64,000 bases of DNA from NCBI GenBank assembly GCA_963805975.1, contig CAWDVR010000001.1, forward strand, positions 1,024,001-1,088,000, read 5' to 3'. The notes under the pieces are model-generated. The model did no database searches, had not been told where the DNA came from, and was given only the letters and a program-made list of their open reading frames with translations. Positions 2 to 41,626 of this stretch are shown here, one piece after another. Source of the DNA: an uncultured Acidobacteriota bacterium (GTDB lineage Bacteria > Acidobacteriota > Thermoanaerobaculia > Multivoradales > SZUA-115). Made by a program: the position numbers and the translations under genes. Position 1 is the first letter of the stretch; each line of letters opens with the position of its first letter.

Positions 2-17740
<17,739 letters not shown>

Positions 17741-18252: not shown

Positions 18253-21200
18253 GTGGTGCCCGTCGGCCGCCCGCTGGCCTACGTGCGGGCGGTGGTCCTG
18301 GACCGCCGGCTCGCGGCGGTGCCCCGCGGCGTGCCCGGCGAGCTCTGCCTGGGTGGCGCCGGCCTGGGCCGAGGCTACGGCGGCCGGCCCGGAGAGACCG
18401 CGGCGACCTTCCTGCCCGACCCCGGCGCGGGCGGCTCCGGCATCCCTTCCGGCGCGCGCCTGTACCGCACCGGCGACCGCGCCCGGCAGCGGGCCTCGGG
18501 ATCGTTCGAGGTCCTGGGCCGGCTGGACCAACAGGTCAAGCTGCGGGGCTTCCGGGTCGAGCCGGGCGAGGTGGAGAGGGTGCTGGCGGCGAACCCGGCG
18601 GTGCGCCAGGCGGCGGTGGTGGTGCGGGAGGAGCAAGGAGAGCTCCGGCTCGCCGCGTTCGCGGTCCTCGCCACGGCCGGTGGCGGGACCGCGTCGACTG
18701 GCGTCGTGGCCGCCGAGCTGCGGCGCCACCTGGCCGAGCACCTGCCCGGCTACATGGTGCCGTCGGCGGTGGCCCTGCTGCCCGAGATCCCCCTCACCGT
18801 CACCGGCAAGGTCGACCGCCGCGCGCTGCTGGCGCTGCCCTCGGAGTCGGCCTTGCTCGCGGCCGGAGAAGCTCTGCAAGGGCCGGTGGAAGAGGCCCTG
18901 GCCGAGATCTGGCGCGAGGTGCTCGGCCCCGGCACGCTGCCCGGCCGGCACGACGACTTCTTCGAGCTCGGCGGCCACTCGCTGATGGCGACGCGCGTGC
19001 TGGCCCGGGTGCGCCGGGTCTTCCAGGTCGAGCTGCCGCTCCGCCACCTCTTCGAGGCCCCCACCGTGGCCGGCCTGGCGGTGTGCATCGAGGCGGCGCT
19101 GGGGGCGGACGGCGCCGCGCTGGAGCGGCCCCTGGTGCGCTGGCCGCGGCCGGGGCCGACGGCCCTCTCCTTCGCCCAGCAGCGCCTCTGGTTCCTCCAC
19201 CGCCTGGAGCCCGAGAGCGCCGCCTACCACGTGCCCAGCGTCGTCTCTCTCCACGGGGAGCTGTCGGTGGCCGGCCTGGCGGCGGCGCTCGCCGGCGTGG
19301 TGGCGCGCCACGAGGTGCTGCGCACCCGCTTCGTGGAGGAGGAGGGCGAGCCGGTGCAGGTGGTGGGGCCGCCGCCCCGCGTACCGCTGCCGGTGGTGGA
19401 CCTGACGGCCCTCGCCTCGGAGGGACGCCTGCCGGGTGCCCGCGAGCTGGCCGCCGCCGAGTCCCGGCTGCACTTCGACCTGGCGCGGGGCCCGGTCCTG
19501 CGCGGCCTGCTCCTGCGCCTGGCGGAGCGCGAGCACGTCCTGGCCGTGACGCTCCACCACATCGTCACCGACGGCTGGTCCGGGGGGCTCCTGGTGCGCG
19601 AGGTGGCGGCGCTCTACCGCCAGACCCAGGGTAGCCAGGTGGGGGGCAGCCAGGCCCAGGGCATCCAGGATGCGCCGCTCCCCGAGCTCGGCATCCAGTA
19701 CGCCGACTACGCCCTCTGGCAGCGCGCGCTCTTCGCGGACGGCTTGCTCGACGATCAGCTCGCCTACTGGCGCCGCCAGCTCGCCGACCCCCCCGGCGCG
19801 CTCGCCCTGCCCACCGACCGCCCCCGGCCGGCGGTGCAGGGCTTCGCCGGCGCGGCCTTGATGGAGACCCTGCCGGCCGAGCTGGCGGCGGGCGTGGCGG
19901 AGATCGGCCGGCGCCTGGGCGCCACCCCGTTCATGACGCTCCTGGCCGGCTTCTTCGCGCTGCTCGGGCGCTACAGCGGCGACGACGACCTGCTGGTCGG
20001 CACCCCGATCGCCAACCGCCGCCACTGGGAGCTCGAGCCGCTGATCGGCTTCTTCGTCAACACCCTGGTGCTGCGCGGGGATTTGGGCCGCCGCGACGGG
20101 TCCGGCCGGCCGGGCTTCGGCGAGCTGGTGGCGCGGGTGCGGAGCACGGCCCTGGGGGCCTACGCCCACCAGGACCTGCCCTTCGAGCGCTTGGTGGAGG
20201 AGGTGGCGCCGGAGCGGCAGCTCGGCGCCCATCCGCTCTTCCAGGTGCTGTTCGTGGTGCAGAACGCCCCGGCGGTGGCGGTGGAGCTGCCCGGCCTCAG
20301 CCTTTCGAGCCTGGAGGTCCACACCGGCACCTCGAAGTTCGACCTCGCGCTCTTCCTCGCCCCGCGGGGAGGCGACGGGGCCGGCGGCTTCGAAGCGGCG
20401 CTCGAGCTCAGCACCGACCTCTTCGACCTCACCACCGGCCGGCGCCTGCTGGGGCACTACCGCGCCCTCCTCACCGCCGCCCTGGCCGATCCGCTGCGCC
20501 CGCTGGACGAGCTGCCCCTGCTGGCCCCGGCCGAGGCCCAGCAACTGGCCCGCGAGTGGCAGGGGCCGGCCGACCTCCCGCCGAGCGGCCAGCGGCTCGA
20601 AGAGGCGATCGCCGCCCGGGCCGCCCTCCATCCTCACCGGGTGGCCGTGGTGTCCGGTTCCGAGCTCCTGACCTACGGCGATCTGATGCGCCGCGCCGGG
20701 ACCATCGCCTCCCGCCTGGCGGCCGAGAACCTCGGCGCCGAGGCGCGGGTCGGCATCTTCCTGGAGCCCGACCTCGACCTGCTGCCTGCCCTCGTGGGCG
20801 TGCTCGCCGCCGGCTGCGCCTACGTCCCCCTGGACCCGGCCCACCCGGCCGAGCGCCTCGCCCTGCTGCTGGAAGACGCCGGCGTATCTCTCGTCCTCAC
20901 CCGCGACAAGCTCCGCTCTCTTCTTCCCCCCTCCCCAACTCCGGTGCTCCCGCTGGAGGACATCGGGTTGGCGCCGGCAGCAGGAAGCGAGGGCCCCGGC
21001 GGGGTGGCGGAGCGCAACGTGACCGAGTGGAGCGGAGCCACCCCGCCGGGGCTCTCGCTCTCCCCGGTTTCTTCTGCTTCTTCCGGGATCGGGCCGGGTG
21101 GCCTGGCCTACGTCCTCTACACCTCCGGCTCCACCGGCCGGCCCAAGGGCGTCGGCGTCGAGCACCGGAGCCTCCTCAGCTTCCTCGCCTCCATGGCCCG

Positions 21201-23175
21201 CCGGCCCGGCCTCGACGAGGAGACCGTCCTCCTGGCCGTGACCACGCTGACCTTCGACATCGCCGCCCTCGAGCTCTTCGGTCCTCTGCTCGCCGGTGGC
21301 CGCGTCGTGATGGCCGGCAGCCGCGCCGGGGCCGACGGCCGCCGCCTGGGAGAGCTGCTGGAGCGTTACCAGGCCACCGCCCTCCAGGCCACCCCCGCCA
21401 CCTGGCAGCTCCTGCTCGCCGCCGGCTGGCCGGGCCGGCCGGGGCTCGAAGCGCTCTGCGGCGGCGAGGCCCTGCCCGAGCCGCTGGCGGCGGAGCTGTC
21501 GCGCCGCGCCGGCCGCGTCTGGAACCTGTACGGACCCACCGAGACCACTGTCTGGTCGGCCGTGGAGCGGGTGGGCGAACGGGTCACCATCGGCCGCCCG
21601 ATCCACCACACCGACCTCCACGTGCTGGACCGCCGCCTGGCGCCGTCCCCCACGGGAACCGTCGGCGAGCTCGCCATCGGCGGCGTGGGCCTGGCGCGCG
21701 GCTACCTGGCCCAAGGACTGGGGGGCCGGCCAGCCTTGACCGCGGCTGCCTTCGTTCCCCACCCGGCGCCGGAGCGGCCGGGGGAGCGCCTCTACCGCAC
21801 CGGCGACCTGGCCCGCTTCCTCCCCGACGGCCGCCTCGACGTCCTGGGCCGGCGCGACCACCAGATCAAGCTGCGCGGCTTCCGCATCGAGCCGGGCGAG
21901 ATCGAGGCCGCCCTCGGCTCCCATCCGGCGGTGTCCCAGGCCGTAGTGCAGGTCTACGAGGAAGCGGAGGGCCCCGGAGACCGCCGGCTCGCCGCCTACG
22001 TGGTGCCCGACCCGACCTTCCAGGACCGCGCGGATCGAGTCGAGGCCTGGGGCGAGGTCTGGGACCAGACCTACCGCCAGGCCGGGGCAGCGGCCGACGC
22101 CGGCTTCGACCTGGCGGGCTGGAACAGCGCCCTGACCGGCGAGCCCCTGCCCGCGGCCGAGATGGCCGAGTGGGTGGAGGGCACGGTGGAGCGCCTGCTC
22201 TCGGCCGCACCCCGGACCGTGCTGGAGATCGGCTGCGGTACCGGGCTGCTCCTCTTCCGCCTCGCTCCCCAAGTCGAGCAGTACACCGCCCTCGACGTCT
22301 CGGCAGGAGTGGTGGCGGCAGTGCAGGCGGAGGCCACGGCGCGGGGCCTGAGCCAGGTCGAGGTGCGCCAGGCGGCGGCCCACCAGCTCACGGGCTTCGC
22401 GGGCCGGAGCTTCGACCTCATCGTGCTCAACTCGGTGGTGCAGTACTTCCCCGACGCCGGCTACCTGGAGGAGGTCCTGACCGCGGCAGCTTCGTTCCTG
22501 GCCCCGCGGGGCGCTCTCTTCGTCGGCGACGTCCGCAGCCTGCCGCTGCTGCCCGCCCTGCACGCCGAGATCGAGCTCCGGCAGGCGCCCGACGACCTCT
22601 CTCTGCCAGACCTGGCGGCCCGGGTCCGGCGGCTGCGGGCCGAGGAGCGGGAGCTGATCCTGGCCCCGGCCTTCTTCGCCGACCTGGCCGAGCGCCTGCC
22701 GCAACGCACCCGCGCCCTGGCCGAGCTCAAGCGGGGCCGGAGCCACAACGAGCTCACCCGCTTCCGCTACGACGTCTGGCTGACGGCCGAGGAGCGCGAG
22801 GCGGCCAGCCAGACGCCCGGAGCTCGTGAGCTGGAAGGCCGGGTGGGCCTGGCGGAGGTCCGCGCGCACCTGGAAGCCGCCCTCGCCGCGGGCGAGGGGC
22901 TGAGCCTCCGCCGAGCGCCCAACGCCCGCCTGGCGGCCGAGGCCGAGCTGCTGGCCCAGCTTTCCGGTGCAGATGAAGAGGGCGCGCCGAGCGCGGGGAC
23001 CCTGCGCGCGGCCCTGGAGGAGGCGCGCGAGGCCCGGCCCGGACTGGACCCCGAGGTTCTGTGGCAGCTCGCCACAGACCTGGGCTGCGCCGCGACCGTG
23101 GGGCCGTCGGCGGAAGATCCTACCTGCCTGGAGGCCGTCTTCCTGCCCCGGGCCGTCGGCGGAGTCGCCAGCTTC
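18253..23175 (+). CDS. Giant NRPS, segment 3: end of A6, T, C-A(Gly) with an embedded N-methyltransferase
   Basis: GELCLGG, YRTGD, FFELGGHSL, HHIVTDG, FDIAALELF/NLYGPTETTVW, and MT motifs VLEIGCGTG and LNSVVQYFP. Frame changes at about 23175 (the ORF track continues out of frame to 23655). Confidence 0.9.
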
Positions 23176-26100
23176 TCTCGCGCTGGTGTCGAGCGCCCAG
23201 CCGGCTTCCGGCCCGCTGAGCAACCGCCCGCTGGGAGCGCAGAGCGCCGGCCGCCTGCCGGCGCTCCTGGCCCGCCACCTGGCCGAGCGCCTGCCGGCCC
23301 ACATGGTGCCCTCGGCCTTCGTCCTCCTGGAGGCCTTCCCGCTGACCGCCAGCGGCAAGGTGGACCGCAAGGCCCTGCCGCCTCCGGGCCGGGACCGGGC
23401 CGCGGCCCGAGGGGCCTACATGGCCCCGCGAAACCCGGTGGAGGAGGCGGTGGCCGGCATCTGGAGCGAGGTCCTGGGGCTGGAACGGGTGGGCGTGGAG
23501 GACGACTTCTTCGCCCTGGGAGGCCACTCGCTGCTCGCCACGCAGGTGGTCTCGCGGCTGGAGAAGCGCTTCGGGCTGGAGGTGCCGCTGCGGCGGATCT
23601 TCCAGGCCCCCACGGTGGCGGCCCTGGCGGCGACGCTCCCGGCCGAGGCCGGTGAAGCGGAAGGCTCTGCTATCGGCGCGGCCTTGCCGCCGCCCATCCG
23701 GCCGGTCGAGCGCGAGCCGCCGCCGCCGCTCTCCTTCGCCCAGGAGCGCCTGTGGTTCCTGGACCAGCTCGACCCGGCGAGCGCCGCCTACAACATCCCC
23801 AGCGCCTTCGCCCTGACCGGCGACCTGGACGCGGTCCTGCTGCAACGCGCCTTCGCCGAGGTGGTGCGGCGTCACGAGACGCTGCGCACCACCTTCGGCC
23901 GCCGCGGGGAGCGGCCGGTGCAGGTCATCGCGGCCTCCGGCTCTTGGCGTCTGCCGGTGGTGGATCTCTCGGGGTCGCCGGAGCCGCGGTGGGCGCTGGC
24001 CGAGGCCCTCGCCCTCGCCGAGGTGCGGAAGCCCTTCGACCTGGCGGCCGGGCCGCTGCTGCGCGTCACGCTGCTGCGGGCCGACCGCCGCCGCCACTTG
24101 CTGGTGGTGAGCCTCCACCACATCGTTTCCGACGGCTGGTCCGTGGCCCGGCTGGTGGGCGAGGTGACGGCGCTCTACGACGCCTTCTCCCGCGGCGAGG
24201 CCTCGCCGCTTCCCGAGCTGCCGTTCCAGTACGCCGACTTCGCGGTCTGGCAGCGGGCCTGGCTGGCGGGCGGCGAGATGGAGCGCCAGCTCGGCTGGTG
24301 GCAGCAGCAGCTCGCCGGGGTGCAGATCCTGGAGCTTCCCACCGACCGGCCCCGCCCGGCAGTCGAGACCTTCCGCGGCGCCGAGCTGCCCATCACCCTC
24401 GACGCCGGGCTGACGGCGGACCTCGAGGCGCTGGCCCGCGAGCGGGGCGCGACCCTCTTCATGGTGCTGCTGGCCGGCTACGAGGTGCTGCTCTCCCGCT
24501 ACTCGGGGCAGCGGGACGTGGTCGTCGGCTCGCCGATCGCCAACCGCAACCGGCGGGAGATCGAGGAGCTGATCGGTTTCTTCGCCAACACCCTGGTGTT
24601 GCGCACCGATCTCTCGGGCGACCCTCCCTTCCGGGAGGTCCTGGAGCGCGTCCAGGAGACCACGCTGGGCGCCTACGCCCGCCAGGACGTGCCCTTCGAG
24701 CGCCTGGTGGAGCGCTTGCAGCCGGATCGCGACCTGTCCAGGAACCCGCTCTTCCAGGTCGAGCTGGTGTTCCAGAACCAGCCGCGGCCGGCGACCCTTT
24801 TGCCCGGGCTCGAGAGCCGGCAGCTCGCGATGGACGCCGGCATCGCCAAGTTCGACCTCACCTTCTTCCTCTCCCGGGTGGGGGAGCGGCTGGAAGGGCT
24901 GGTGGAGTACAACACCGACCTCTTCGACCGCGTCACGGCCCGGCGCATGGCCCGGCACCTCCAGCAGGTGCTGGCCGGCCTGCGCCGGCACCTGGCGACG
25001 CCGCTCTCCGCCCTGCCCCTGCTGTCCGAGATCGAGCTGCACCAGGTCCTCCGCGAGTGGAACGACCCGGTGGAGGAGGCGCTCTGCGGGCGCCTGGTCC
25101 ACCGCCTGGTGGAGGAGCGGGCCGCCGCCCAGGCCGACGAGCTGGCGGTGCTCGACGGCGAGCGCCGCCTGACCTACGGCGAGCTCAACGCCCGCGCCAA
25201 CCAGCTCGCCTGGCGGCTGATCGAGCTGGGCATCGGGCCCGAGTCCATCGTCGGCATCTGCGTCGAGCGCTCGCTGGAGATGGTGATCGGCCTCTTGGGG
25301 GTGCTCAAGGCCGGCGGCGCGGTCCTCGCCCTGGACCCGGCCTACCCCCTCGACCGGCTGTCCTACATCATCCGGGAGGCGGGCCTCTCGGTGCTGCTGG
25401 TGGACGACCTGCTGCGGGAGGTCCTGCCGGAGCACGACGGGGTGGAGCTGACCCTCGACCGGGACTGGCGGGACTTCGCCGGCCGGCCCGAGGGGAACCC
25501 AGAGGTCCACGTCTGGCCCGAGAACCCGATGTACATCATCTACACCTCGGGGACCACCGGGAAGCCCAAGGGCATCGTCGTCACCCACCTGGCCTTCTCG
25601 AACCTCCTCGAGTGGCAGCTCCGCCAGTCGGGCCTGCCGCGGCCGGACGGTGAGGGCCGCGCGGCCCGCACCGTGCAGTTCGCCACCTTCGGCTTCTGCG
25701 TCAGCTTCCAGGAGATCTTCACCTCCTGGTGCTCCGGCAGCGCGCTGGTGCTGGCCGGGGAGATGGTGCGGCGCGACATCGACGGCCTGGCCGGCTTCCT
25801 GGAGGCGCACGGCGTCGAGCGCCTCCACCTGCCCTTCGCCGCCTTGAAGCACCTGGCCGAGGCCGCGGCCACCCAGGAGCGCCTGCCGAGCCGCCTCACG
25901 GAGGTGATCACCGCCGGCGAGCCGCTGCTGGTCAACCCGGCGGTGCGGCGGCTCTTCACCCGGCTGGGCTGCGTGCTGCGCAACCAGTACGGGGCCTCCG
26001 AGACCCACGTGGTGACCTCGTTCTCCCTCGCCGGGGAGGTCGCTTCCTGGCCGGCCATCCCGCCGGTGGGCCGCAACATCACCGGGGTGGCGATCCACCT

Positions 26101-26895
26101 GCTGGACCGCGCGCTCCGCCCGGTGGCCGTCGGCGTGCCCGGGGCGCTCTTCAGCACCGGCCGCTGCGAGGCCCGGGGCTACCTCGCCGAGCCGGTGATG
26201 ACCGCCGAGAAGTACGTCCCCGACCCCTTCACCGGCACCTTCGGCGGCCGTCTCTACCGCACCGGCGACCTCGCCCGGCGCCTGCCCGGCGGCGAGATCG
26301 AGTTCCTGGGGCGGATCGACGACCAAGTGAAGATCCGCGGCTACCGCCTGGAGCTGGGCGAGGTGGACACGGTGCTGGCGCGGCACCCCAAGCTGCGCGA
26401 CGTGGCCTCGCTCGTGCGGCCCACCGACACCGGCAACCTCCTGGTTTCGTATCTGGTGCTCGAAGAGCCGATGGCCGACGTGACGGCCGAGCTCACCGCC
26501 TACATGAAGGCCCGGGTGCCGGAGCACATGGTGCCTTCGGCGTTCGTGGTGATGGACTGGCTGCCGGTCAACGCCAACGGCAAGCTGGACCGGGAGGCCC
26601 TGCCGGCGCCCGAGGTGGTCACCGGCCGGGCCAAGGCCGCCACCGCCACCCTACGCAACGCCACCGAGGAGCTGCTGGCCGAGCTCTGGCAGGAGGTCCT
26701 GGGCGGCGAGCGGCCCGGCCCCGAGGACGACTTCTTCGATCTCGGCGGGCACTCGATCCTGGCGACCCAGCTCATCTCGCGCGTGCGCCTGGCCTTCGAG
26801 GTCGAGCTGCCGCTGATGGCCCTGTTCGAGAGCCCCACCCTGGGAGGGCTGGCCGCGGTGCTCGAGGAGTCCAGGGAGCGACGAGCGGGCAGGGA
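23176..26895 (+). CDS. Giant NRPS, segment 4: end of A7, T, C-A8 (Pro/Pip-like, Asp235->Cys)-T
   Basis: LPAHMVP...SGKVDR, GGHSLLAT, HHIVSDG, YTSGTTGKPKG, FCVSFQEIF, NQYGASETHVV and GGHSILAT, within ORF 22967..27490. Confidence 0.9.
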
Positions 26896-27152
26896 GCGGT
26901 GCCCCCCCTGGTGGCCGGAGGATGGCCGCCGCCGGCGCCGCTCTCCTTCGCCCAGCAGCGGGTCTGGCTCCACGAGCAGACCCTGCCGGGGAGCTCGGTC
27001 TACAACCTGCCGCTCGCGGTGCGCCTCTCGGGCGAGCTCGCGGCGGTGGCCCTGGCGCGGGCGGCCGGCGAGGTGGTGCGCCGCCACGAGGCCCTGCGCA
27101 CCCGCTTCGAGGTCCACGGCGGCCTGCCGGTGCAGGTGGTGGAGCCGGCCGG
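26896..27152 (+). CDS. Giant NRPS, segment 5: N-terminus of C domain 9
   Basis: PLSFAQQRVWL...YNLP...RHEALRTRF reads in frame +1 between two frameshifts. Confidence 0.8.
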
Positions 27153-30100
27153 GGCCCGTTCCGGCTGCCGGTGGTGGACCTCCAGGGCCTTCCCGCGGCC
27201 GGGCGGGAAGCGAGGGCCCGGCGCCTGGCCGACCGCGCGGCCGCCCGGCCCTTCGATCTCGCCCGGGGGCCGCTCCACGCCTGGTGCCTGCTGCGGCTGG
27301 CACCCGTGGAGCACGCCTTGGTGATCAACCTCCACCACACCGTCTCCGACGGCTGGTCCACCGGCGTGCTGGCCGGCGAGATGGAGGCGCTCTACGCCGC
27401 CTTCCGGGCGGGCCAACCCTCCACGCTGCCGGCTCTCGCGGTCCAGTACGGCGACTACGCCGTCTGGCAGCGGCGCTGGCTCTCGGGTGAGGTGCTGGAG
27501 GGGCAGCTCGAGGCCTGGCGCGGGCTGCTGGCCGGCGCCCCGGCGGCCCTGCCCCTGCCCACCGACCGGCCGCGGCCCGCGCTGCGCTCCCAGCGGGGGA
27601 CCACGCGGCGGGCGGCCCTGCCGGCGGCCCTGGTGGAGGATCTCCGCGGCCTCGCGCGGAGCCAGGGAACGACCCTGTTCATGGCCCTGCTGGCCGGCTT
27701 CGACGCCTTGCTGGCCGCCTGGTCCGGGGCCCGGGACGTGGTGGTGGCCACCACCTACGCCAACCGGCGGGACCGGGCGCTGGAGCCGCTGATCGGCTTC
27801 TTCGTCAACCCCGTGCTGCTGCGCACCGATCTCTCCGGGCGCCCCAGCTTCGGCGAGCTCCTGGCGCGGGTGAGGCGCACCGTGCTCGCCGCCTCGGCGA
27901 ACCAGGACGTGCCCTACGAGAAGGTCACCGAGAGGCTGCGCGCCGCGGACCCCGAGTGGTGGTCGCCGCTGCCGCAGGTGATCTTCACGCTCCAGAACAC
28001 CCCCCTGCCGCGCCTGGCCCTGCCGGGATTGGAACTCTCGCCCCTGGGGGCCGACGACGGAACCACCAAGGCCGAGCTGGAGCTGGCCTTCTTCGACGGC
28101 GGTGACGGCGGCCTCGCCGGCAGCCTGACCTACGACCGGGAGCTCTTCGACGCCGCCACCATGGCCCGGTTCCTGGCCCACCTGGAGGTCCTGCTGGGGG
28201 CCGCGGCAGCCGCTCCCGAGACGGCGCTGGAGGCCCTGCCGCTGCTCCGTCCGGCCGAAGAGGCGCAGCTACGAATGGAGCACAACGACTCGGCCCGGAT
28301 CTGGCCGCGGGAGACCCCCGCCACCCTCCACGGCCTGGTGCTGTGGCGCGCCGAGGTGGCCCCCGAAGCGGTGGCGGTGGTCTACGAGGACGAGGTTCTG
28401 TCCTATGGTGAGCTCGCGCGCCGCGCACGGGCCCTGGCCGCGATCCTGGCCTGCCACGGTGCCGGTCCCGAGCGGCTGGTGGCGGTGGCCATGGAGCGCT
28501 CCCTGGAGCTGCCCGTGGCGCTGTTGGCCGTGCTCGTCGCGGGCGGCGCCTACGTCCCCCTGGACCCCTCGTACCCCGAGGAGCGGCTGCGCTTCATGCT
28601 GGCGGACAGCGGAGCGCCGGTCGTGCTGACCCAGGCCCGGCTCCTGCCCGCGCTGGAGTCCCTGGCGGCCGGCTCTGCCGCTCGCTGGCTGGCCGTGGAC
28701 GACCTGCCGGCCGGGGAACCCGCGGAGATCACGACGCCGCAGGAAGGCCCGACAGTGGAGCACCAGGACGGCCTGGCCTACGTCATCTACACCTCCGGCT
28801 CGACGGGCAGGCCCAAGGGTGCGATGAACCATCACCGCGGCATCGTCAACCGGCTGCAGTGGATGCAGGAGGCCTATGGTCTTGTGGCTTCGGACCGGGT
28901 GCTGCACAAGACCCCGGTGAGCTTCGACGTCTCGGTCTGGGAGCTGTTCTGGCCGCTCGTCGCCGGCGCCTGCATGGTGGTGGCCCGCCCCGGCGGTCAC
29001 CGCGAGCCCGCCTACCTGGCGGCGCTCCTGGCCGAGGAGCGGATCACCACGCTGCACTTCGTGCCGTCGATGCTCCAGGCCTTCCTGGGGGAGGAGGCGC
29101 CCGCGGCGACAGCGGTGCGCCGGGTGATCGCCAGCGGCGAGGCCCTGTCCTGGGAGCTGAAGGAGAGCTTCTACCGGCGCTTCGGCCCCTCCGCTGAACT
29201 GCCCGGGGCCGAGCTGCACAACCTCTACGGCCCCACCGAGGCCGCCATCGACGTCACGGCCTGGGCTTGCGCCCCCGGAGGCAGCCTCCGGCCGGTGCCC
29301 ATCGGCCGGCCGGTGGCCAACACCCGGGTCCACCTGCTCGGGCCTGGCGGCCGGCTGGCGCCGCTGGGCGTGCCCGGCGAGGCGGTCCTGGCCGGCCCGC
29401 AGCTCGCCCGCGGCTACTGGCGCCGGCCCGCCCTCACCGCCAGCACTTTCGTTCCGGACCCGCTGGCGAGCCGGCCGGGCGAGCGCCTCTACCGCACCGG
29501 CGACCTGGCCCGGCGCCTGCCCGGCGGCGAGGTCGAGTTCCTGGGCCGCCTCGACCACCAGGTCAAGGTGCGCGGCTTCCGCATCGAGCTGGGCGAGGTG
29601 GAGGGTGCGCTCGAGGCCCATCCCGGTGTGCGCCAGGCGGTGGCGGTGGTGTGGGAGGAGGCAGGTGAGATGGGGCGGCTGGTGGCCTACCTGGTGCCGG
29701 CCGCGGCCGGCGGCCCCGCGCCGGGGGCCGAGGAGCTGATCCCCTTCCTGGCGGAGCGCCTGCCGGAGCAGATGGTCCCCTCGGCCTTCGTCTCGCTGCC
29801 GGAGCTGCCCCTCTCGCCCTCCGGCAAGGTGGACCGGCGGCGGCTGCCGGCCCCGTCGGCCGAGGGCCTGCGGGGCGCCGGAGCCTTCGCGCCCCCGCGC
29901 TCGCCCCTCGAACGCGCCCTGGCCGCCGTCTGGCAGGAGGTGCTGGGCTTGGCCTCCTCGGAAGCTTCGTCCCTGGGCCTGGACGACAACTTCTTCGCCT
30001 TCGGCGGCGACTCCATCCGCATGCTCCAGGTGCGCCAGAAGGCGGCGGAGCGGGGCATCGGGCTCTCGGCCCAGGATCTCTTCTCCGCCCCCACGCTGCG

Positions 30101-34810: not shown

Positions 34811-37800
34811 GTGCTGCAAGAGAGCGACGTCGAGGCCCTGCACCCCCTGTCCCCCCAGCAGCAGGGGATGCTCTTCGAGTGGCTGCGGGCGCCGGAGTCC
34901 GGGGTCCACGTCGAGCAGTCCCTGTTCACGCTGGACGATGGAAGCGGCCAGGGAGGTCTGGACCTCGCCGCTTTCCAGGAGGCCTGGGGGCGGCTGGCCG
35001 AGCGTCACGCCATCCTGCGCACCGCGTTCGTCTGGGAGAACCGCCGGGAGCCGCTGCAGGTGGTGCTCCGCCGGGCGGAGATCCCCATCGCGGTCGAGGA
35101 CTGGCGGGAACGGCCGGTGGAGGCAGCGCTCGCAGCTTTTCTCGAGGCCGATGCCCGCCAGGGCCTGCCGCTGCACCGGGCGCCGCTCATGCGCCTGGCC
35201 CTGTTCCGCTGTGGCAGCGGCCGGAGCCTCCTGGTGTGGACCTCCCACCACATCCTCCTCGACGGCTGGAGCCGCAGCCGGATCTTCGGCGAGCTGCTGC
35301 CGCTCTACGGTGCCCTGGCCCGGGGAGAGGCGCCGCCGGTGCTGCCTCCGGTGCGCCCCTACGGCGACTACGTCTCGTGGCTGGGAGAGCAGGACACGGC
35401 CGCGGCGGCCGGCTTCTGGCGCCGCCAGCTCGCCGGCCTCGCCGGCCCCAGCGGACTGCCACTGGAGGAGGGCCGCGCGGCTTCGGTCGCGGGAGAGCGG
35501 TACGGGTCCCTGAAGCTGGGTCTCGGTGCCGAGGCGACACGGGGCCTGGAGGAGCTCGCCCGGCGGCGGCGGGTGACGCTGAGCACGGTGGTCCAGGGGG
35601 CCCTGGGCCTGCTCCTCGCCCGCTACGGCGGCCGTGAGGACGTCCTCCTCGGCATCACGGTCTCCGGCCGCCCCGGCGGCCTGCAAGGCGTGGAGGAGAT
35701 GGTGGGGCCCTTCCTCAACACCTTGCCGCTGCGGCTGGCGGTGCCCGAGGGTGGTGCCTTCGACGCCTGGCTCGGTCGAGTCCAGGCCGCCGCCCTGGCG
35801 CTGGCCTCGTACCAGCACTGCTCCGAGGGCCAGGTCCACGCCTGGAGCGGCCTGCCGCCGTCGGCGCCTTTGTACGAGGCGGTGCTGGTGTTCGAGAACT
35901 ACCCCCTGCTGGAGGACGGCTCGGCAGTAGGGGAGCTGGGCTTCCGCATCTCCGGCCTGGAGCAGCGGGGGGCCCGCACCAAGTACCTGCTCACTTTCCT
36001 GGTGTTCGCGGAGCAGGAGCTCTCCTTCGAGCTGGTCTACGACGGCCGGCGCCTGGGGCCCGAAGGCGCCCGGCGGGTCGCCGATCAGCTCGCCGGCCTC
36101 CTGCGCACCGTGGCCCAGGGGCCCGGCACCGATCTCGGGGCGCTGCGCGCGGCGATCGCCGACGAGGAGCTGCCGCGCTGCCGGCCGGCGACGGCCGGTG
36201 AGGTGGACTCGACGCCGCCCCGCACCGCCGTCGAGCGGCTGCTGGCGCCGGTCTGGGCTCGGGTCCTGGGTGTCGAGGGGCTGGGAGTCCACGCCAGCTT
36301 CCTCGAGCTCGGCGGGCACTCGCTCCTGGCGCTGGAGCTGGCGGGCGAGAGCCGCCGCGCCCTGGGCTGCGAGGTGCCTCTGCGCCTGCTCTTCACCGAT
36401 CCCAGCGTCGCCGGCGTGGCGGCGGCCGTGCTGGAGGCCGAGGCAGGCCAGGCCCCGGAGACGGTGGCGCGGATCATGGGGCCGGGAGAGCCGACAGCTC
36501 CACTGACCGGGCTGGCCCCCGAGACCCAGGACCGGCTGTGGGAGGCGCTGGTCGCCGCCCGCTCCGGGCAGGCCGAGCCGCCGCCGGCCCCGCCGCACAT
36601 CGAGCCCCGCCCGGGCGAGCGCCACGAGCCCTTCCCCCTGACCGGCATCCAGACGCTCTACTGGCAGGCCCGGGGCGGGCTGGCGCCGACCGACACCCAC
36701 GGCAACAACCTGGTGGTGGAGTTCGAGATCCCGGGTGCCGGCGAGGGGTTGGTGGCGGCGCTGGAAGCGGCGCTGGGGCACCTGGTCGAGCGCCACGCCA
36801 TGCTGCGCGCGGTCTTCTCTCCCGACGGCACGCAGCGGGTGCTGCCGGAGGTGCCCCGACCCTCGATTCGGCGCCTCGATCTGCGGTCGCTTGCCGCGGG
36901 GGAAGCGGAGGCCCGGGTGGCGGCCCTGCGCTTCGAGCTGCGCCACCGCCGGGCCGCTCCCGACCGCTGGCCCCTCTTCGAGGTGATCGCCCACCTGCTG
37001 CCCGGGGAGCGCCTGCGCCTCCAGTTGCGCATGGAGGCCCTGCTGCTGGACGGCGACAGCCGGGAGCGCCTGTTCCAGGAGCTCCTGGCCCTGGTCCGCC
37101 GTCCCGACCTCGCCCTGCCTCCCCTGGGGGTGACCTTCCGGGACTATGCCGTGGGCTGGCGCCGGCTCGCCGCCCAGCACGGAGACTTCCGCCGCTCCCG
37201 CCAATACTGGCTCGGCCGGCTGCCGCACCTTCCGGCCCCCGCGACGCTGCCCACCCGCGGCGGCGGCCCGCCTTGGCCCCGGCGCTTCGCCCTGGAGAAG
37301 GAGACCGCCCGCTTGCTTCCGGCCGGGGAGTGGGCGGCGGTCAAGACACGAGCGGGGGAGCGGGGCCTGACACCCTCGGCGGTGGTGGCCGGCGCCTTCG
37401 CCGCGGTTTTGGGCCATGCGATCTGGGGCCACGCGGCGCGAGACGAACCTGGCGGCGGGCGCAGCTTCACGCTGCCGGTGGTGGGCAACTTCCGCCCTCC
37501 CTTCCACCCCGACCTCGAAGGCGTGGTGGGCAACTTCGACACCCTCTACCCGGTGGCGGTCCGCGACGCCGCGGCACCGCTGGTGGAGATCGCCCGGCAG
37601 CTCCAGGAGGAGCTGATGGCGGCCTTGGAGCACCCTTACTTCTTCGGCCCCGAGGCCCTGCTCCAGCTCGCCCGGCGCCACCCCGGCACCGGGGCCACTC
37701 CGGCGGTGGTCTTCAACAGCCTGGTGGAGTTCAACCACCCCCAGCACCGGCAGCGGCTGCTGGCGGCCAAGGGCGAAGCTCCGTTGGGCGAGCAGATCGA

Positions 37801-38020
37801 CCTCAGCATCAACATCCCGCAGGTGATCTTCAACGGCACGATCGCCGAGACCCTGGACGGCGACCTCATCGCCCTTTGGCAGTGGATGGACGAGGCCCTC
37901 GCCCCTGGAGTGGCGGCGGAGGTGCGGGACGGGTACCGCCGGCTCCTCGTCTGCCTGGCGCGGGCGCCCGAGCCGTGGGACCTGCCGTTCGAGGAGGCAG
38001 TCCTCCCCTCATCGCCCTGA
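34811..38020 (+). CDS. Terminal NRPS protein: C (DCL-like)-T-degenerate heterocyclization (Cy) domain, no A and no TE
   Basis: GTG at 34811 after GAGGAG. PLSPQQQGMLF, HHILLDGWS, FLELGGHSL, and Cy-like FPLTxxQ, RHAMLRAVFxxDGTQ, WPLF, TFRDY and PQV motifs. Confidence 0.88.
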   Translation: MLQESDVEALHPLSPQQQGMLFEWLRAPESGVHVEQSLFTLDDGSGQGGLDLAAFQEAWGRLAERHAILRTAFVWENRREPLQVVLRRAEIPIAVEDWRERPVEAALAAFLEADARQGLPLHRAPLMRLALFRCGSGRSLLVWTSHHILLDGWSRSRIFGELLPLYGALARGEAPPVLPPVRPYGDYVSWLGEQDTAAAAGFWRRQLAGLAGPSGLPLEEGRAASVAGERYGSLKLGLGAEATRGLEELARRRRVTLSTVVQGALGLLLARYGGREDVLLGITVSGRPGGLQGVEEMVGPFLNTLPLRLAVPEGGAFDAWLGRVQAAALALASYQHCSEGQVHAWSGLPPSAPLYEAVLVFENYPLLEDGSAVGELGFRISGLEQRGARTKYLLTFLVFAEQELSFELVYDGRRLGPEGARRVADQLAGLLRTVAQGPGTDLGALRAAIADEELPRCRPATAGEVDSTPPRTAVERLLAPVWARVLGVEGLGVHASFLELGGHSLLALELAGESRRALGCEVPLRLLFTDPSVAGVAAAVLEAEAGQAPETVARIMGPGEPTAPLTGLAPETQDRLWEALVAARSGQAEPPPAPPHIEPRPGERHEPFPLTGIQTLYWQARGGLAPTDTHGNNLVVEFEIPGAGEGLVAALEAALGHLVERHAMLRAVFSPDGTQRVLPEVPRPSIRRLDLRSLAAGEAEARVAALRFELRHRRAAPDRWPLFEVIAHLLPGERLRLQLRMEALLLDGDSRERLFQELLALVRRPDLALPPLGVTFRDYAVGWRRLAAQHGDFRRSRQYWLGRLPHLPAPATLPTRGGGPPWPRRFALEKETARLLPAGEWAAVKTRAGERGLTPSAVVAGAFAAVLGHAIWGHAARDEPGGGRSFTLPVVGNFRPPFHPDLEGVVGNFDTLYPVAVRDAAAPLVEIARQLQEELMAALEHPYFFGPEALLQLARRHPGTGATPAVVFNSLVEFNHPQHRQRLLAAKGEAPLGEQIDLSINIPQVIFNGTIAETLDGDLIALWQWMDEALAPGVAAEVRDGYRRLLVCLARAPEPWDLPFEEAVLPSSP

Positions 38021-38037: not shown

Positions 38038-39741
38038 ATCGCCCCCCTCCTCCACCTCTTGCGCTTCCTGCTCCGCTTCACGCGCCACGTGCACTTCTCC
38101 CGGCTGGGAGTGGGGCTGGTGCTGGCCGCCGGCCTGGTGGCCGGCGCCGCCAACATCCTGCTGCTGGCGATCATCAACTCCGCCCTGGGCTCCCTGGGCT
38201 CGCCCAGCCGCTTCCTGGTCACGGCCTTCGCCGCGTTGTGCGTGCTGATGCCGGTCACCTGGTTCGCCTCCCAGTACCTGATCTTCGCCCTCAACCAGCA
38301 GGTGCTCTCGGACCTGCGCATGCACCTCGCGAAACGCATCCTGGCCACCCCGCTGCGCCGGCTGGAGGAGGTGGGGCCGGGGCGGCTGCTGGCCACTCTC
38401 ACCGAGGACGTGGGGGCGATCTCCCAGGCCCTCCTGGACATTCCGCTGCTGTGCCTGAACGGCGCCATCGTGCTGGGTTGCCTGGCCTACTTCGCCTACC
38501 TCTCCTGGCCGGTGCTGCTGGGCTTCGTGGTGGTGATGGCCCTGGGGCTCGCCAGCTACCAGCTTCCGCTCGCCCGGGCCACCAGGCACTTCTCCGAGGG
38601 CCGTCGCCACTTCGACCAGATGGTGGGGCACCTGCGGTCGCTGACCGATGGCACCAAGGAGCTCAAGGTCCACCGGCCCCGGCGGCAGGCCTTCGTCTCA
38701 GAGCACCTGGAGGCCAGCGTCCAGGGCTACCGCCGCGCCAGCGTGCGGGGCGGCAAGATCTTCGCCGCCGCCACCGGCTGGGGGAGGGGAGTCTTCTTCG
38801 TGGTGATCGGCCTGGTGCTCTTCGTCCTGCCCCAGCAGACCACTCTCGACCGCACGGCGATCACCGGCTACGTCCTGGGGCTCCTCTACCTGATGAACCC
38901 CATCGACATCGTGCTGCGGGTGATGCCGGAGCTCAGCCGGGCCGCGGTCGCCATCCGGCAAGTGGAAAACCTGGGGCTCTCCTTGGCCGAGGAGGAGCCG
39001 GCGGGACCCGAGCCGGCGCCGGAGCGGCCGGGTGCGGCCTCAGTCGGCGAGTGGCGCCGCCTGGAGCTGGACGGAGTGCACTACTCCTACCCCGGGGAGG
39101 AAGGTCACACCTTCGCGCTGGGGCCCCTGGACCTCGTGCTCACCCCCGGGGAGCTGGTCTTCGTGGCCGGCGGCAATGGCAGCGGCAAGACCACTCTGGC
39201 CAAGCTCTTGACCGGCCTCTATGAGCCGGATGCGGGAGAGGTCCGCCTCGACGGAACCGCCGTCACCGCCGCCAACCGGGAGGCCTTCCGGCAGCATTTC
39301 TCGGTGGTCTTCTCCGACTTCCACCTCTTCCCGAGCCTGCCGGGGCTCTGGGCGCCGGACCTGGAAAAGGCGGCGGGGGAGTACCTGGCCACGCTGCAGC
39401 TCGCTCACAAGGTCCAGGTCAAGGACGGCGCGCTGACCACGGTGGATCTCTCTCAAGGGCAGCGCAAGCGGCTGGCACTGCTCACCGCCTACCTAGAAGA
39501 TCGGCCCATCTACCTGTTCGACGAGTGGGCCGCCGACCAGGACCCCTACTTCAAGGAGGTCTTCTACCGGCAGCTCCTGCCGGGTCTCAAGAAGCGGGGC
39601 AAGACGGTGGTGGTGATCAGCCACGACGACCGCTACTACGACCAGGCCGACCGCCTGGTCAAGCTGGAGAACGGGCGCTTCGTGGAGCCCCAGGCGCCGG
39701 CGGCATCCGCCAGCGCCTCGACCTCCCGCACCAGCGCGTAG
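38038..39741 (+). CDS. Cyclic peptide export ABC transporter (SyrD/PvdE/YojI family)
   Basis: About six TM segments, DGTKELK, Walker A GGNGSGKT, VFSDFHLF, LSQGQRKRL and FDEWAADQDP. Start uncertain: ATC at 38038 after AAGGAG, or TTG at 38059. Confidence 0.92.
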   Translation: MAPLLHLLRFLLRFTRHVHFSRLGVGLVLAAGLVAGAANILLLAIINSALGSLGSPSRFLVTAFAALCVLMPVTWFASQYLIFALNQQVLSDLRMHLAKRILATPLRRLEEVGPGRLLATLTEDVGAISQALLDIPLLCLNGAIVLGCLAYFAYLSWPVLLGFVVVMALGLASYQLPLARATRHFSEGRRHFDQMVGHLRSLTDGTKELKVHRPRRQAFVSEHLEASVQGYRRASVRGGKIFAAATGWGRGVFFVVIGLVLFVLPQQTTLDRTAITGYVLGLLYLMNPIDIVLRVMPELSRAAVAIRQVENLGLSLAEEEPAGPEPAPERPGAASVGEWRRLELDGVHYSYPGEEGHTFALGPLDLVLTPGELVFVAGGNGSGKTTLAKLLTGLYEPDAGEVRLDGTAVTAANREAFRQHFSVVFSDFHLFPSLPGLWAPDLEKAAGEYLATLQLAHKVQVKDGALTTVDLSQGQRKRLALLTAYLEDRPIYLFDEWAADQDPYFKEVFYRQLLPGLKKRGKTVVVISHDDRYYDQADRLVKLENGRFVEPQAPAASASASTSRTSA

Positions 39742-40754
39742 GGGTCCCAGGCGTCGTGAGAGACGCTCTCGAGCGGCAGCTCGGTGCCCAGGCCGAGGTG
39801 GTGGGCGTGCGCGAGGAGCACCTCCATCGCCACCTGGTCCTCGAGGGCGAAGCCGGTGGAGTCGAAGATCGTGGTCTCGCCGCGCAGATGGGCGAAGCGC
39901 TCCGGCGTCTTGACCAGCTCGTCCAGGCTCGCCCCCACCTCCTCGGGCGCCAACTGCTGGCACTCCCCCTCGCGCAGGGCCTGCTCGCGGAAGTCAGCGC
40001 ACACCCAGGCCCGGCGGACCAGCCCGGCCGGCAGCTCGGTCTTGCCGGGGAAGTCGGAGCCCACGGCGTTGATATGCACCCAGGGGCGGAGCGCGTCGCC
40101 GTCGAGGACCGCCCCCTCGCCCGGGGCCACCGAGGTGGCGGTGCACAGCAGGTCGGCGGCGGCCTCCACCTCGCGGCGGGGAGCGGGCCGCACCGGCACG
40201 CCGAACGCGGCGGTGCGCTGGGCGAAGGAGCGCTCCACCCGCGGATCGGCGTCGTGGATCAGCACCTCTCGCAGGTCGAAGCAGCGGCTCAGGGCGTGGA
40301 GCTGGGTCACCGCCTGCATACCGCAGCCCACCAGGCCCAGGACGCGGCTGTCGGGGCGAGCCAGCAGGCGGCTCGCCACCGCCGACGCGGCGCCGGTGCG
40401 CACCGCCGTGGCCAGGCCCCCGTCGGCCACCGCCAGCAGGTGGCCGTTGGCCACGTCGTAGAGGGAGAGGGTCGCCAGCACCGTGGGGATCCCCTGGCCG
40501 GGGTTGTGGGGGTGGTAGGCCACGGTCTTGATGAGCACGTTACGCCCCACGGTGAGGAGCGGCATCCACTCCACCAGGCCGGGCCGGGGAGAGTCGTAGT
40601 CGAAGCCGTCCCGCACCGGGATGCGAGTCGTGGCCGGATCGAAGGCGCGCAGGCTGGCCTCGAGCCCGGCGATCACCTCGTCCATCAGCGAGTCGAGGCC
40701 CACCGTGGCGGCCAGGCGGGCGACGTCGTCGCGGCCGAGGAAGAGGGTCTTCAA
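39636..40754 (-). CDS. Lysine/ornithine cyclodeaminase (RapL/PipA/TubZ-like; pipecolate or proline forming)
   Basis: TTG start overlaps the upstream TGA, with a GGAGG RBS. VEWMP, KTVAYHPHNP, RTGAASAVA, GCGMQA, HINAVGSD and FDSTGFALED motifs. Confidence 0.9.
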   Translation of the reverse strand: MKTLFLGRDDVARLAATVGLDSLMDEVIAGLEASLRAFDPATTRIPVRDGFDYDSPRPGLVEWMPLLTVGRNVLIKTVAYHPHNPGQGIPTVLATLSLYDVANGHLLAVADGGLATAVRTGAASAVASRLLARPDSRVLGLVGCGMQAVTQLHALSRCFDLREVLIHDADPRVERSFAQRTAAFGVPVRPAPRREVEAAADLLCTATSVAPGEGAVLDGDALRPWVHINAVGSDFPGKTELPAGLVRRAWVCADFREQALREGECQQLAPEEVGASLDELVKTPERFAHLRGETTIFDSTGFALEDQVAMEVLLAHAHHLGLGTELPLESVSHDAWDPYALVREVEALADAAGAWGSTKRPFSSLTRRSAWS

Positions 40755-41626
40755 ACCGCCACCTCCTCGGACCTCCGGGTGGGGAACTCGAAGCGCTCGC
40801 CCAGCGCACGCTCCTCGATGCAGAAGCGCTTGAAGGCGACCGCCTTCTCCGCGAGCCGGGGGTCCTCCGCACGGCGGGCCAGCTCCACCAGCCAGTCGAA
40901 GACGTCGGCCGCGTGCGCCTGGCGGTAGAAATGGATCTTGCCCAGGAGGCCGACCAGGTCGCGGAAATTCTCCTGGGTCAGGAGCTTGCCCAGGGCGAAG
41001 AGGATCTGCCGGTCCTCCTGGGTCAGGGGCTCGCGCTCGACGAGGTGCGGCGAGAGCTCCCCGGAGTTCCGGTACGGGGGCCGGACCCACTCTTCGAGCG
41101 GGCGCCCGTCGTCCGAGAAATCGAGGCACAGGGAGATACGCCGGAAGTCGAAGAGGCTGCACGCCGAGTGGACCGTCCGGGCGTCGAGGAACCAGACCTC
41201 CCCCTCCCGCATGTGGAAGACCAGATCCTCCTCGGAGTGCAGGCAGCTCGGGTCCGTGGCCAGAGGCACGTTGAGGCGCACGAACGGCTCCTCGAACTCG
41301 ACGAAGTCCCGGTGCGAGATCAGCAGGCCGTTGTGGACCAGGAAGATGCGCTCCCATTTCAGGCGATCGGTATCGAAGGTCTCTGCGATGGCCTGGCCCA
41401 GGTAGGGCAGCTCGCGCCCGAGGGCAGTTTTCTGCGGCCGTCCCTCGTAGCCCCGGAACGAGGTGTCTGCCGCGTCGCCGCCGGCGTTGGCCAGCACGTA
41501 GGAGCGCCAGGTTCCGAAGGTGTATTCGGAGTACTGATCTTTGACCTGGAAATCGAGGATCCTGGCCAGCTCGGGGGCGAGCCGAGACGAGTCGAGCCGG
41601 AGCCTGCCGAGAATTTGTGACTTCAT
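40751..41626 (-). CDS. Fe(II)/2-oxoglutarate L-proline/L-pipecolate hydroxylase (proline 3-hydroxylase/GetF-like)
   Basis: MKSQILGRLRLDSSRLAPEL, HRDFVE (HxD), FHMREGEVWFLDARTVHSA, RISLCLDF and a helical C-terminal domain resemble Streptomyces proline 3-hydroxylase. Confidence 0.87.
   Translation of the reverse strand: MKSQILGRLRLDSSRLAPELARILDFQVKDQYSEYTFGTWRSYVLANAGGDAADTSFRGYEGRPQKTALGRELPYLGQAIAETFDTDRLKWERIFLVHNGLLISHRDFVEFEEPFVRLNVPLATDPSCLHSEEDLVFHMREGEVWFLDARTVHSACSLFDFRRISLCLDFSDDGRPLEEWVRPPYRNSGELSPHLVEREPLTQEDRQILFALGKLLTQENFRDLVGLLGKIHFYRQAHAADVFDWLVELARRAEDPRLAEKAVAFKRFCIEERALGERFEFPTRRSEEVAV

Follow-up and report, generated by a model that had tools for sequence, protein, structure and literature searches.

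What does a nonribosomal peptide synthetase (NRPS) module load when its adenylation (A) domain belongs to the proline clade and lacks the aspartate (Asp235) that is treated as near-invariant for α-amino-acid loading? The question is raised by a 64,000-nucleotide stretch of a contig from an uncultured Acidobacteriota bacterium (CAWDVR010000001.1, positions 1,024,001 to 1,088,000; the whole stretch is called the window below), in which the A domain of module 9 of an 11-module NRPS (P0001) has Cys in place of Asp235 and Ala in place of the usual Pro of core motif A5. The two changes always occur together, and this coupling, at the position of the LgrA P483A mutation, is the most informative point. 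We propose, with a probability of roughly 40% and on the strength of sequence comparisons, that this module would load a small α-hydroxy acid directly and that its own condensation (C) domain would form an ester in the growing peptide.

The Cys235 codon (tgc) lies in frame within the open reading frame (ORF) at 22967..27490 and is two base changes from gac, as a preliminary description of this DNA had stated; its account of an NQYGASETH A5 motif and of intact A3, A7, A8 and A10 motifs likewise holds in sequence and translation, and the A5 Glu is also retained. Positions of the 10-residue code were assigned from motifs, with GrsA numbering as in PMC11253843. The predicted model of the domain has a normal ANL A-domain fold (predicted local distance difference test, pLDDT, 88.7), and a fold search with this model returned only ordinary A domains, with template modelling (TM) scores of up to 0.89 to LgrA. 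Judged by sequence and predicted fold, the domain resembles a competent NRPS A domain and is likely active; it has the placement and the side-chain pocket of a Pro domain and lacks both Asp235 and the A5 Tyr-Gly-Pro.

The double substitution is the property of a clade. Besides the window's own, 16 proteins among the 120 matches listed share both the A4 and the A5 motif at 52–63% identity, so that the close homologues, in which the preliminary description had allowed for Asp, have Cys instead; after these come Asp235 Pro domains, NosD among them. A back-translated motif pattern recovered 42 stretches, all of them A domains, in 30 GTDB genomes besides the window's (25 Acidobacteriota, Lentzea, Longimicrobium, two Cloacimonadota and one other bacterium; mostly Thermoanaerobaculia). 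Within a sample of 251 genomes of the window's order, the motif occurs in 14, 12 of which come from one family of 50 genomes, and in none of the seven other genomes of the window's own family. A pattern scan of metagenomes gave 26 stretches, 21 of them Cys235 modules (some duplicating genome loci) and five of them not A domains. In a FastTree phylogeny of 155 domains, for which motif columns were retained and Asp domains subsampled, all 75 Cys235 domains fall on one branch (support 0.81) nested within the Pro clade, and hence have a single origin there. Cys235 is invariant across the branch (75/75) and the A5 position is Ala in 64 domains, Ser in seven and Thr in four, never Pro, whereas Asp and the A5 Pro are present together in 71 of 71 Asp235 relatives from the Pro clade and in 97 of 97 in a second set. 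The branch is further marked by a Lys of its own (72/75, against 3/71 Asp235 relatives), and its code position 278 is His in 59, Tyr in 13 and Phe in three domains. Apparent extra Cys235 codes in contig C2 of the window genome and in G276 proved to be alignment artefacts.

The Cys235 domains are under purifying selection (median Nei–Gojobori dN/dS of 0.26 over 86 non-independent pairs from 39 genes, and 0.25 in the A4–A5 core), and Lys517 (74/75), Glu327, A3 and A7 are conserved in them. Short-read contigs from three public runs cover position 25697, with no difference at the codon among the differences listed. Together with the homologues and the spread of the motif over 30 other genomes, these observations rule out a sequencing miscall or decay and bear out the earlier view that the Cys is no single miscall.

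Asp235 is reported to be replaced in hydroxy- and keto-acid A domains, the keto-acid domain StsA to have Met in place of the A5 Pro, and mutation of the corresponding residue of LgrA, to Ala (P483A) or Met (P483M), to increase activity with keto acids slightly (PMC11253843); the numbering of LgrA Pro483 is confirmed by PMC10212144. According to the review PMC11253843, with coverage to July 2023, no native A-domain structure with a bound hydroxy acid had been described. In the DeepAden training table of 4,545 labelled A domains (PMC13335487 supplement; rows were retrieved by term, the first places for each), both changes are found in seven of the eight listed direct hydroxy-acid loaders whose motifs could be read, a count that sets aside three further labelled rows, one keto-type and two degenerate; the two phenyllactate rows probably represent FrsE. 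All six domains with YGASE in this table take non-amino, beta-amino or iso-linked substrates (3-aminoisobutyrate, lysergic acid in two, iso-linked Asp in two, and benzoate). The A4 motif itself is present in none of the 4,545 labelled domains, those labelled Pro included.

Without Asp235, nothing would balance the charge of an ammonium group, and replacement of the A5 Pro would free a backbone NH; together these changes would favour an uncharged α-heteroatom, to which the Cys thiol might form a hydrogen bond. In the mechanism that we envisage, the A domain would bind a small α-hydroxy acid through backbone groups, perhaps with help from the Cys thiol, and adenylate it, the acid would be loaded on the thiolation (T) domain of module 9, and the C domain of the module would join the upstream chain to it as an ester. 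From the conserved double substitution, a substrate without an ordinary charged α-amine is the more likely reading, in keeping with the non-amino acid that had been among the suggestions at the outset.

The architecture of the modules narrows the range of substrates. All Cys235 copies whose start lies on the locus are C-A-T elongation modules with an intact HHxxxD(G) motif, and no Cys235 module contains a ketoreductase (KR) domain: the A domain is followed directly by T, and the KR matches at the loci belong to polyketide synthase (PKS) modules. Because the copies follow a C domain and have no KR, a keto or nucleophile-free acid could not be extended, and keto acids, pyroglutamate and other nucleophile-free acids were hence ruled out. 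The neighbours of Cys235 modules vary, with up to three copies in one NRPS, and in one locus (L005) the Cys235 module stands directly before a canonical Pro module. In a single case (P0299, residues ~1160–1550), a flavin adenine dinucleotide (FAD)-dependent oxidoreductase is fused after the T domain of a Cys235 module.

The C domains paired with Cys235 resemble one another: the nearest match is another Cys235-paired C domain in 55 of 67 cases (a count that includes P0103 and P0111, mis-coded as Cys235 and removed from counts of 65), as compared with at most 6/26 in other module classes, and a Pro-module C domain is nearest in 19 of 65, against about 25% expected. They differ from neighbouring C domains in the same loci by Glu216 (28/30 vs 3/94), Phe23 (29/30 vs 2/94) and Ala/Ser289 (27/30 vs 4/94). 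The C domain of module 9 (numbered from its start) has a partial set of the paired residues, with Glu216, Ala289, Asn342, Gln354 and Phe383 and without Phe23, Gly203, Met339 and Trp384. The paired C domain may be co-adapted to an unusual nucleophile.

Genes that might supply such a substrate were surveyed in 115 loci (2.14 Mb) around Cys235 copies, excluding L050–L053, L095 and L096 (wrong or unverified contigs); many carrier genomes are incomplete assemblies, and absence of a gene means that it was not found. Neither all-against-all clustering of 338 flank ORFs nor Pfam scans revealed a shared tailoring gene or stand-alone partner, and the MacB/FtsX permeases, PKS modules and TauD that recur in the flanks are non-specific. 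Because no supply gene is common to the clusters, the monomer is likely a primary metabolite, and malate, glycerate, lactate or a similar acid would fit. Ornithine N-hydroxylase is found in 10 of the 31 carriers and not in the window genome, and KtzT-like piperazate genes occur among the 115 loci only in the Lentzea contig; this co-occurrence rules out piperazate as the general substrate.

Several observations weigh against the loading of a hydroxy acid. The remaining pocket positions of the window domain are Pro-like. FrsE-A3 activates L-Phe (48%) nearly as well as L-phenyllactate (52%) (PMC9299796), and therefore loss of Asp need not exclude amino acids; moreover, FrsE-A3, EnSyn-A1 and the engineered TycA have Gly or Ala at position 235, not Cys, and belong to other clades. 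Loss of the A5 Pro is non-specific: labelled Ser, hydroxyphenylglycine (Hpg) and diaminobutyrate (Dab) domains with YGATE exist in the DeepAden table, and 24 of ~1,130 Asp-bearing domains in our own set of 1,220 have Ala, Ser or Thr at this position. FrsE has a dedicated, in-cluster dehydrogenase, FrsC (PMC9299796), and none was found in the 115 Cys235 loci, which contain no homologue of lactate/malate dehydrogenase (LDH/MDH) or D-2-hydroxyacid dehydrogenase (two window-genome queries) and, by Pfam, no 2-hydroxyacid dehydrogenase in the flanking genes, a short-chain dehydrogenase/reductase (SDR) lying beside one cluster only (L073). The window genome has one LDH/MDH and one D-2-hydroxyacid dehydrogenase homologue, both on another contig; searches for LDH/MDH and 2-hydroxyacid dehydrogenases match nearly all control genomes and hence do not discriminate. 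Finally, C domains of ordinary Pro modules also cluster together (113/173), and shared ancestry alone can account for the paired C-domain residues.

The Pro-like pocket invites the alternative that the module loads ordinary L-proline (perhaps also pipecolate, Pip), with Cys235, possibly as a thiolate, and a re-tuned A4/A5 backbone standing in for Asp and fixed by compensation. Seven side-chain positions match the Pro code and vary as they do in Pro domains (His/Tyr/Phe278, Gln/His322), the Cys235 clade is nested in the Pro clade, and proline would need no supply gene and would suit modules found among so many different neighbours, up to three per NRPS; the amino acid still accepted by the FrsE hydroxy-acid domain points the same way (PMC9299796). 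This account is almost as likely as hydroxy-acid loading, and we place it only slightly behind: every one of the 71 and 97 Asp235 domains of the Pro clade keeps both Asp and the A5 Pro, the motif is missing from every labelled Pro domain of the DeepAden table, 17 of the 31 carrier genomes (the window's included) also have canonical Asp235 Pro motifs, and for most of the paired C domains the nearest match is not one from a Pro module. A Pro-shaped ring with an uncharged nitrogen, drawn from primary metabolism, would explain why the pocket is kept and its acid removed, and would equally require no cluster-encoded supply; pyrroline-5-carboxylate, for example, would give dehydro- or 5-hydroxy-proline after acylation. 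Piperazate domains offer a parallel in that all 20 DeepAden rows listed lack the A5 Pro and three of them are Pro-clade-like, but they keep Asp, and piperazate itself is ruled out as the general substrate; the two labelled pyrroline-5-carboxylate domains (fungal) keep both Asp and Pro, and we found no precedent for a normal C domain acylating an imine, which makes such a ring an unlikely substrate.

For hydroxypipecolate, which the preliminary description had named together with co-occurring cyclodeaminase and hydroxylase genes, the two genes are real: they lie 13–15 kb downstream of module 9, match known structures of a lysine cyclodeaminase and a proline 3-hydroxylase and, on these sequence matches, likely make 3-hydroxypipecolate. 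Among the 115 loci, however, they flank the window cluster only and stand beside no other copy. The PF05373 hydroxylase is found in none of the 30 other carriers (many of them incomplete assemblies), and of the two genomes with it among the 251 of the window's order, the one besides the window's lacks the Cys235 motif; cyclodeaminase-family matches occur in 23 of the 30 other carriers, at only 29–40% identity, like the second copy of the window genome. The remodelled pocket that had been suggested is thus upheld by the clade-wide double change, whereas hydroxypipecolate is ruled out as the general substrate by co-occurrence across the other carriers, and it is improbable that module 9 alone is dedicated to it, given that the canonical Asp235 module 6 of the same cluster can use the product and is most likely what these genes serve. 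Hardly credible at all is a catalytically dead domain, skipped or loaded in trans, as had also been entertained. Across the Cys235 clade the A6 motif and the residues preceding the A10 Lys are relaxed, there are frame breaks nearby in the assembly, and the A6 departure noted earlier (GALFSTGRCEARGY) is indeed present, if only partly special to the clade (Cys in 60/75 members and also in 20/71 Asp235 relatives); but inactivity is contradicted by the near-invariant Lys517, the conserved A3, Glu327 and A7, the low dN/dS in domain and core, the normal predicted fold and the lack of a shared stand-alone partner in the flanks. Direct loading of a hydroxy acid accordingly stays the reading that we prefer for module 9. 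Its extension to the whole clade is more tentative, and we hold it at rather less than even odds: a widespread ester-forming C-A family would have arisen from Pro modules; with Cys235 in place and the A5 Pro gone, its A domains would select a hydroxy acid of primary metabolism, with no need of a KR or supply gene, and a co-adapted C domain would form the ester.

The cluster that contains module 9 starts ~3.5 kb before the window (table 1). Several frame breaks interrupt the NRPS in the window and are likely assembly errors. The three-module run of modules 7–9, methyltransferase included, recurs in P0135, which is 68% identical across the Cys235 module. The A domain of module 8 presumably takes a Gly/Ala-like substrate, judging from its code. 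The protein that ends the assembly line has a heterocyclisation-like domain whose DxxxxD motif looks altered, and may release or cyclise the product; a cyclic-peptide ABC exporter gene follows downstream of the NRPS.

Table 1. Coordinates of features in the window
Feature	Position	Strand	Details
Module 6, canonical Asp235 Pro/Pip-type A domain	14048..15544	+	Code DVQFMAHVIK
Module 8, A domain interrupted by methyltransferase	20584..22827	+	Precedes module 9
Module 9, C domain	23720..25036	+	HHIVSDG intact
Module 9, A domain, proline clade (P0001)	25070..26617	+	Code CVQHIAQVVK; from sequence and translation
A3 P-loop YTSGTTGKPKG	25541..25573	+	Intact
A4 FGFCVSFQE	25688..25714	+	Cys235 codon tgc at 25697-25699
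His278 (code position) to clade-specific Lys	25826..25849	+	
A5 NQYGASETHVV	25982..26014	+	Ala (gcc) at 25994-25996 replaces usual Pro; aligns with LgrA Pro483
A6 GALFSTGRCEARGY	26141..26182	+	Relaxed across Cys235 clade
A10 catalytic Lys517	26582..26584	+	Intact
Module 9, T domain	26654..26863	+	GGHS serine intact; ordinary C domain next, across frame break near 26.9 kb
C-T-heterocyclisation-like protein without A or thioesterase (TE) domain	34811-38020	+	Ends assembly line; EpoB Cy match, E 8e-51
Lysine cyclodeaminase-like gene	39636..40750	-	Start approximate; PF02423; 5yu0, E 1e-86
Proline 3-hydroxylase-like 2-oxoglutarate (2OG)-Fe(II) gene	40751..41626	-	PF05373; 1e5r, E 3e-62; TIGR04531 below cut-off

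The survey also brought to light features outside the Cys235 modules. The contig of the window carries a second large NRPS cluster (contig positions 1092600-1129600, minus strand) with 11 A-domain matches, one of which has the unusual Pro-like code DVYVITQVVK. In L044 (3463-7555), 8–13 kb upstream of the cluster start, lie a fatty-acid desaturase, a cyclopropane synthase-like methyltransferase and a CarF-like desaturase; a desaturase similar to that of L044 flanks a small cluster in L020/L084, and tailoring of a lipid tail is possible. The Lentzea contig (L045–L048), from Lentzea sp. NPDC034063, the sole named isolate in the set of 30 genomes, encodes a hybrid NRPS-PKS with a Cys235 module and, nearby, a B12 radical S-adenosylmethionine (SAM) methyltransferase, TauD, YcaO-TfuA, and piperazate and Hpg-like genes. 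Tandem C domains follow Thr-type modules in L004:3302-5965 and L017:6396-9370, the first of each pair being of an HHAIGDG type, and may be dehydrating domains. A cytochrome P450 fused to an AMP-binding enzyme stands beside three related giant NRPS-PKS clusters (L063:14586-17690, L089:15035-18253, L093:15183-18458). Additionally, an A-domain type with A4 HDPLQRD and A5 YGSTE recurs, often just before a ketosynthase (KS) domain (L003, L006, L010, L021, L022, L024 and others); the string HDPLQRD has no match in the DeepAden table.

We found no publication on the code, the motif or such a clade in a search of literature outside subscription papers, and the 12 supplement files of PMC10212144 that were searched, of 20, do not contain the A4 motif. 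Were a hydroxy acid loaded, module 9 would be a natural, KR-free, ester-forming module, and structure predictions, including those that direct synthesis from sequence, would have to be corrected for clusters of 31 genomes or more; were proline loaded, Cys could substitute for Asp, a natural exception to the code rule. Should the clade be an ester-forming family, numerous giant peptides from uncultured Acidobacteriota would be depsipeptides whose ester-linked residues are misread by predictors as proline, and the module would offer a natural building block for inserting an ester into a peptide backbone.

How the Cys235 clade relates to known systems can be stated position by position. It shares with Pro A domains (A4 FDVSFQE; NosD P0083/P0085, TycB1 9bfd_B and GrsB1 8p5o) its position in the tree, fold, C-A-T context and pocket positions 236, 239, 299, 301, 322, 330 and 331, at about 40–49% identity, and differs from them in Cys235, the A5 Ala/Ser/Thr, Phe-Gly before A4, the mostly His278, the clade-specific Lys and a paired C domain with residues of its own. 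Piperazate A domains (MatJ, ACY06285 A3) resemble it in loss of the A5 Pro, and some are Pro-clade-like, but they keep Asp235, and piperazate genes are missing from the window genome and most carriers. Keto-acid A-KR domains (StsA/cereulide, valinomycin) and the LgrA P483A/M mutants likewise have Asp235 and the A5 Pro replaced, and the window domain carries the exact P483A change of LgrA; those domains constitute a separate, keto-acid type with an embedded KR, in contrast to the KR-free module 9 with its Pro-clade ancestry. With the direct hydroxy-acid loaders (FrsE-A3 of FR900359, EnSyn-A1 of enniatin and TycA engineered for phenyllactate, 7YWK) it shares a small neutral residue at 235 instead of Asp and the absence of a KR, and the natural rows listed are also without the A5 Pro; by this signature the module 9 domain is like a loader of non-amino acids, and a candidate member of the FrsE/EnSyn type.

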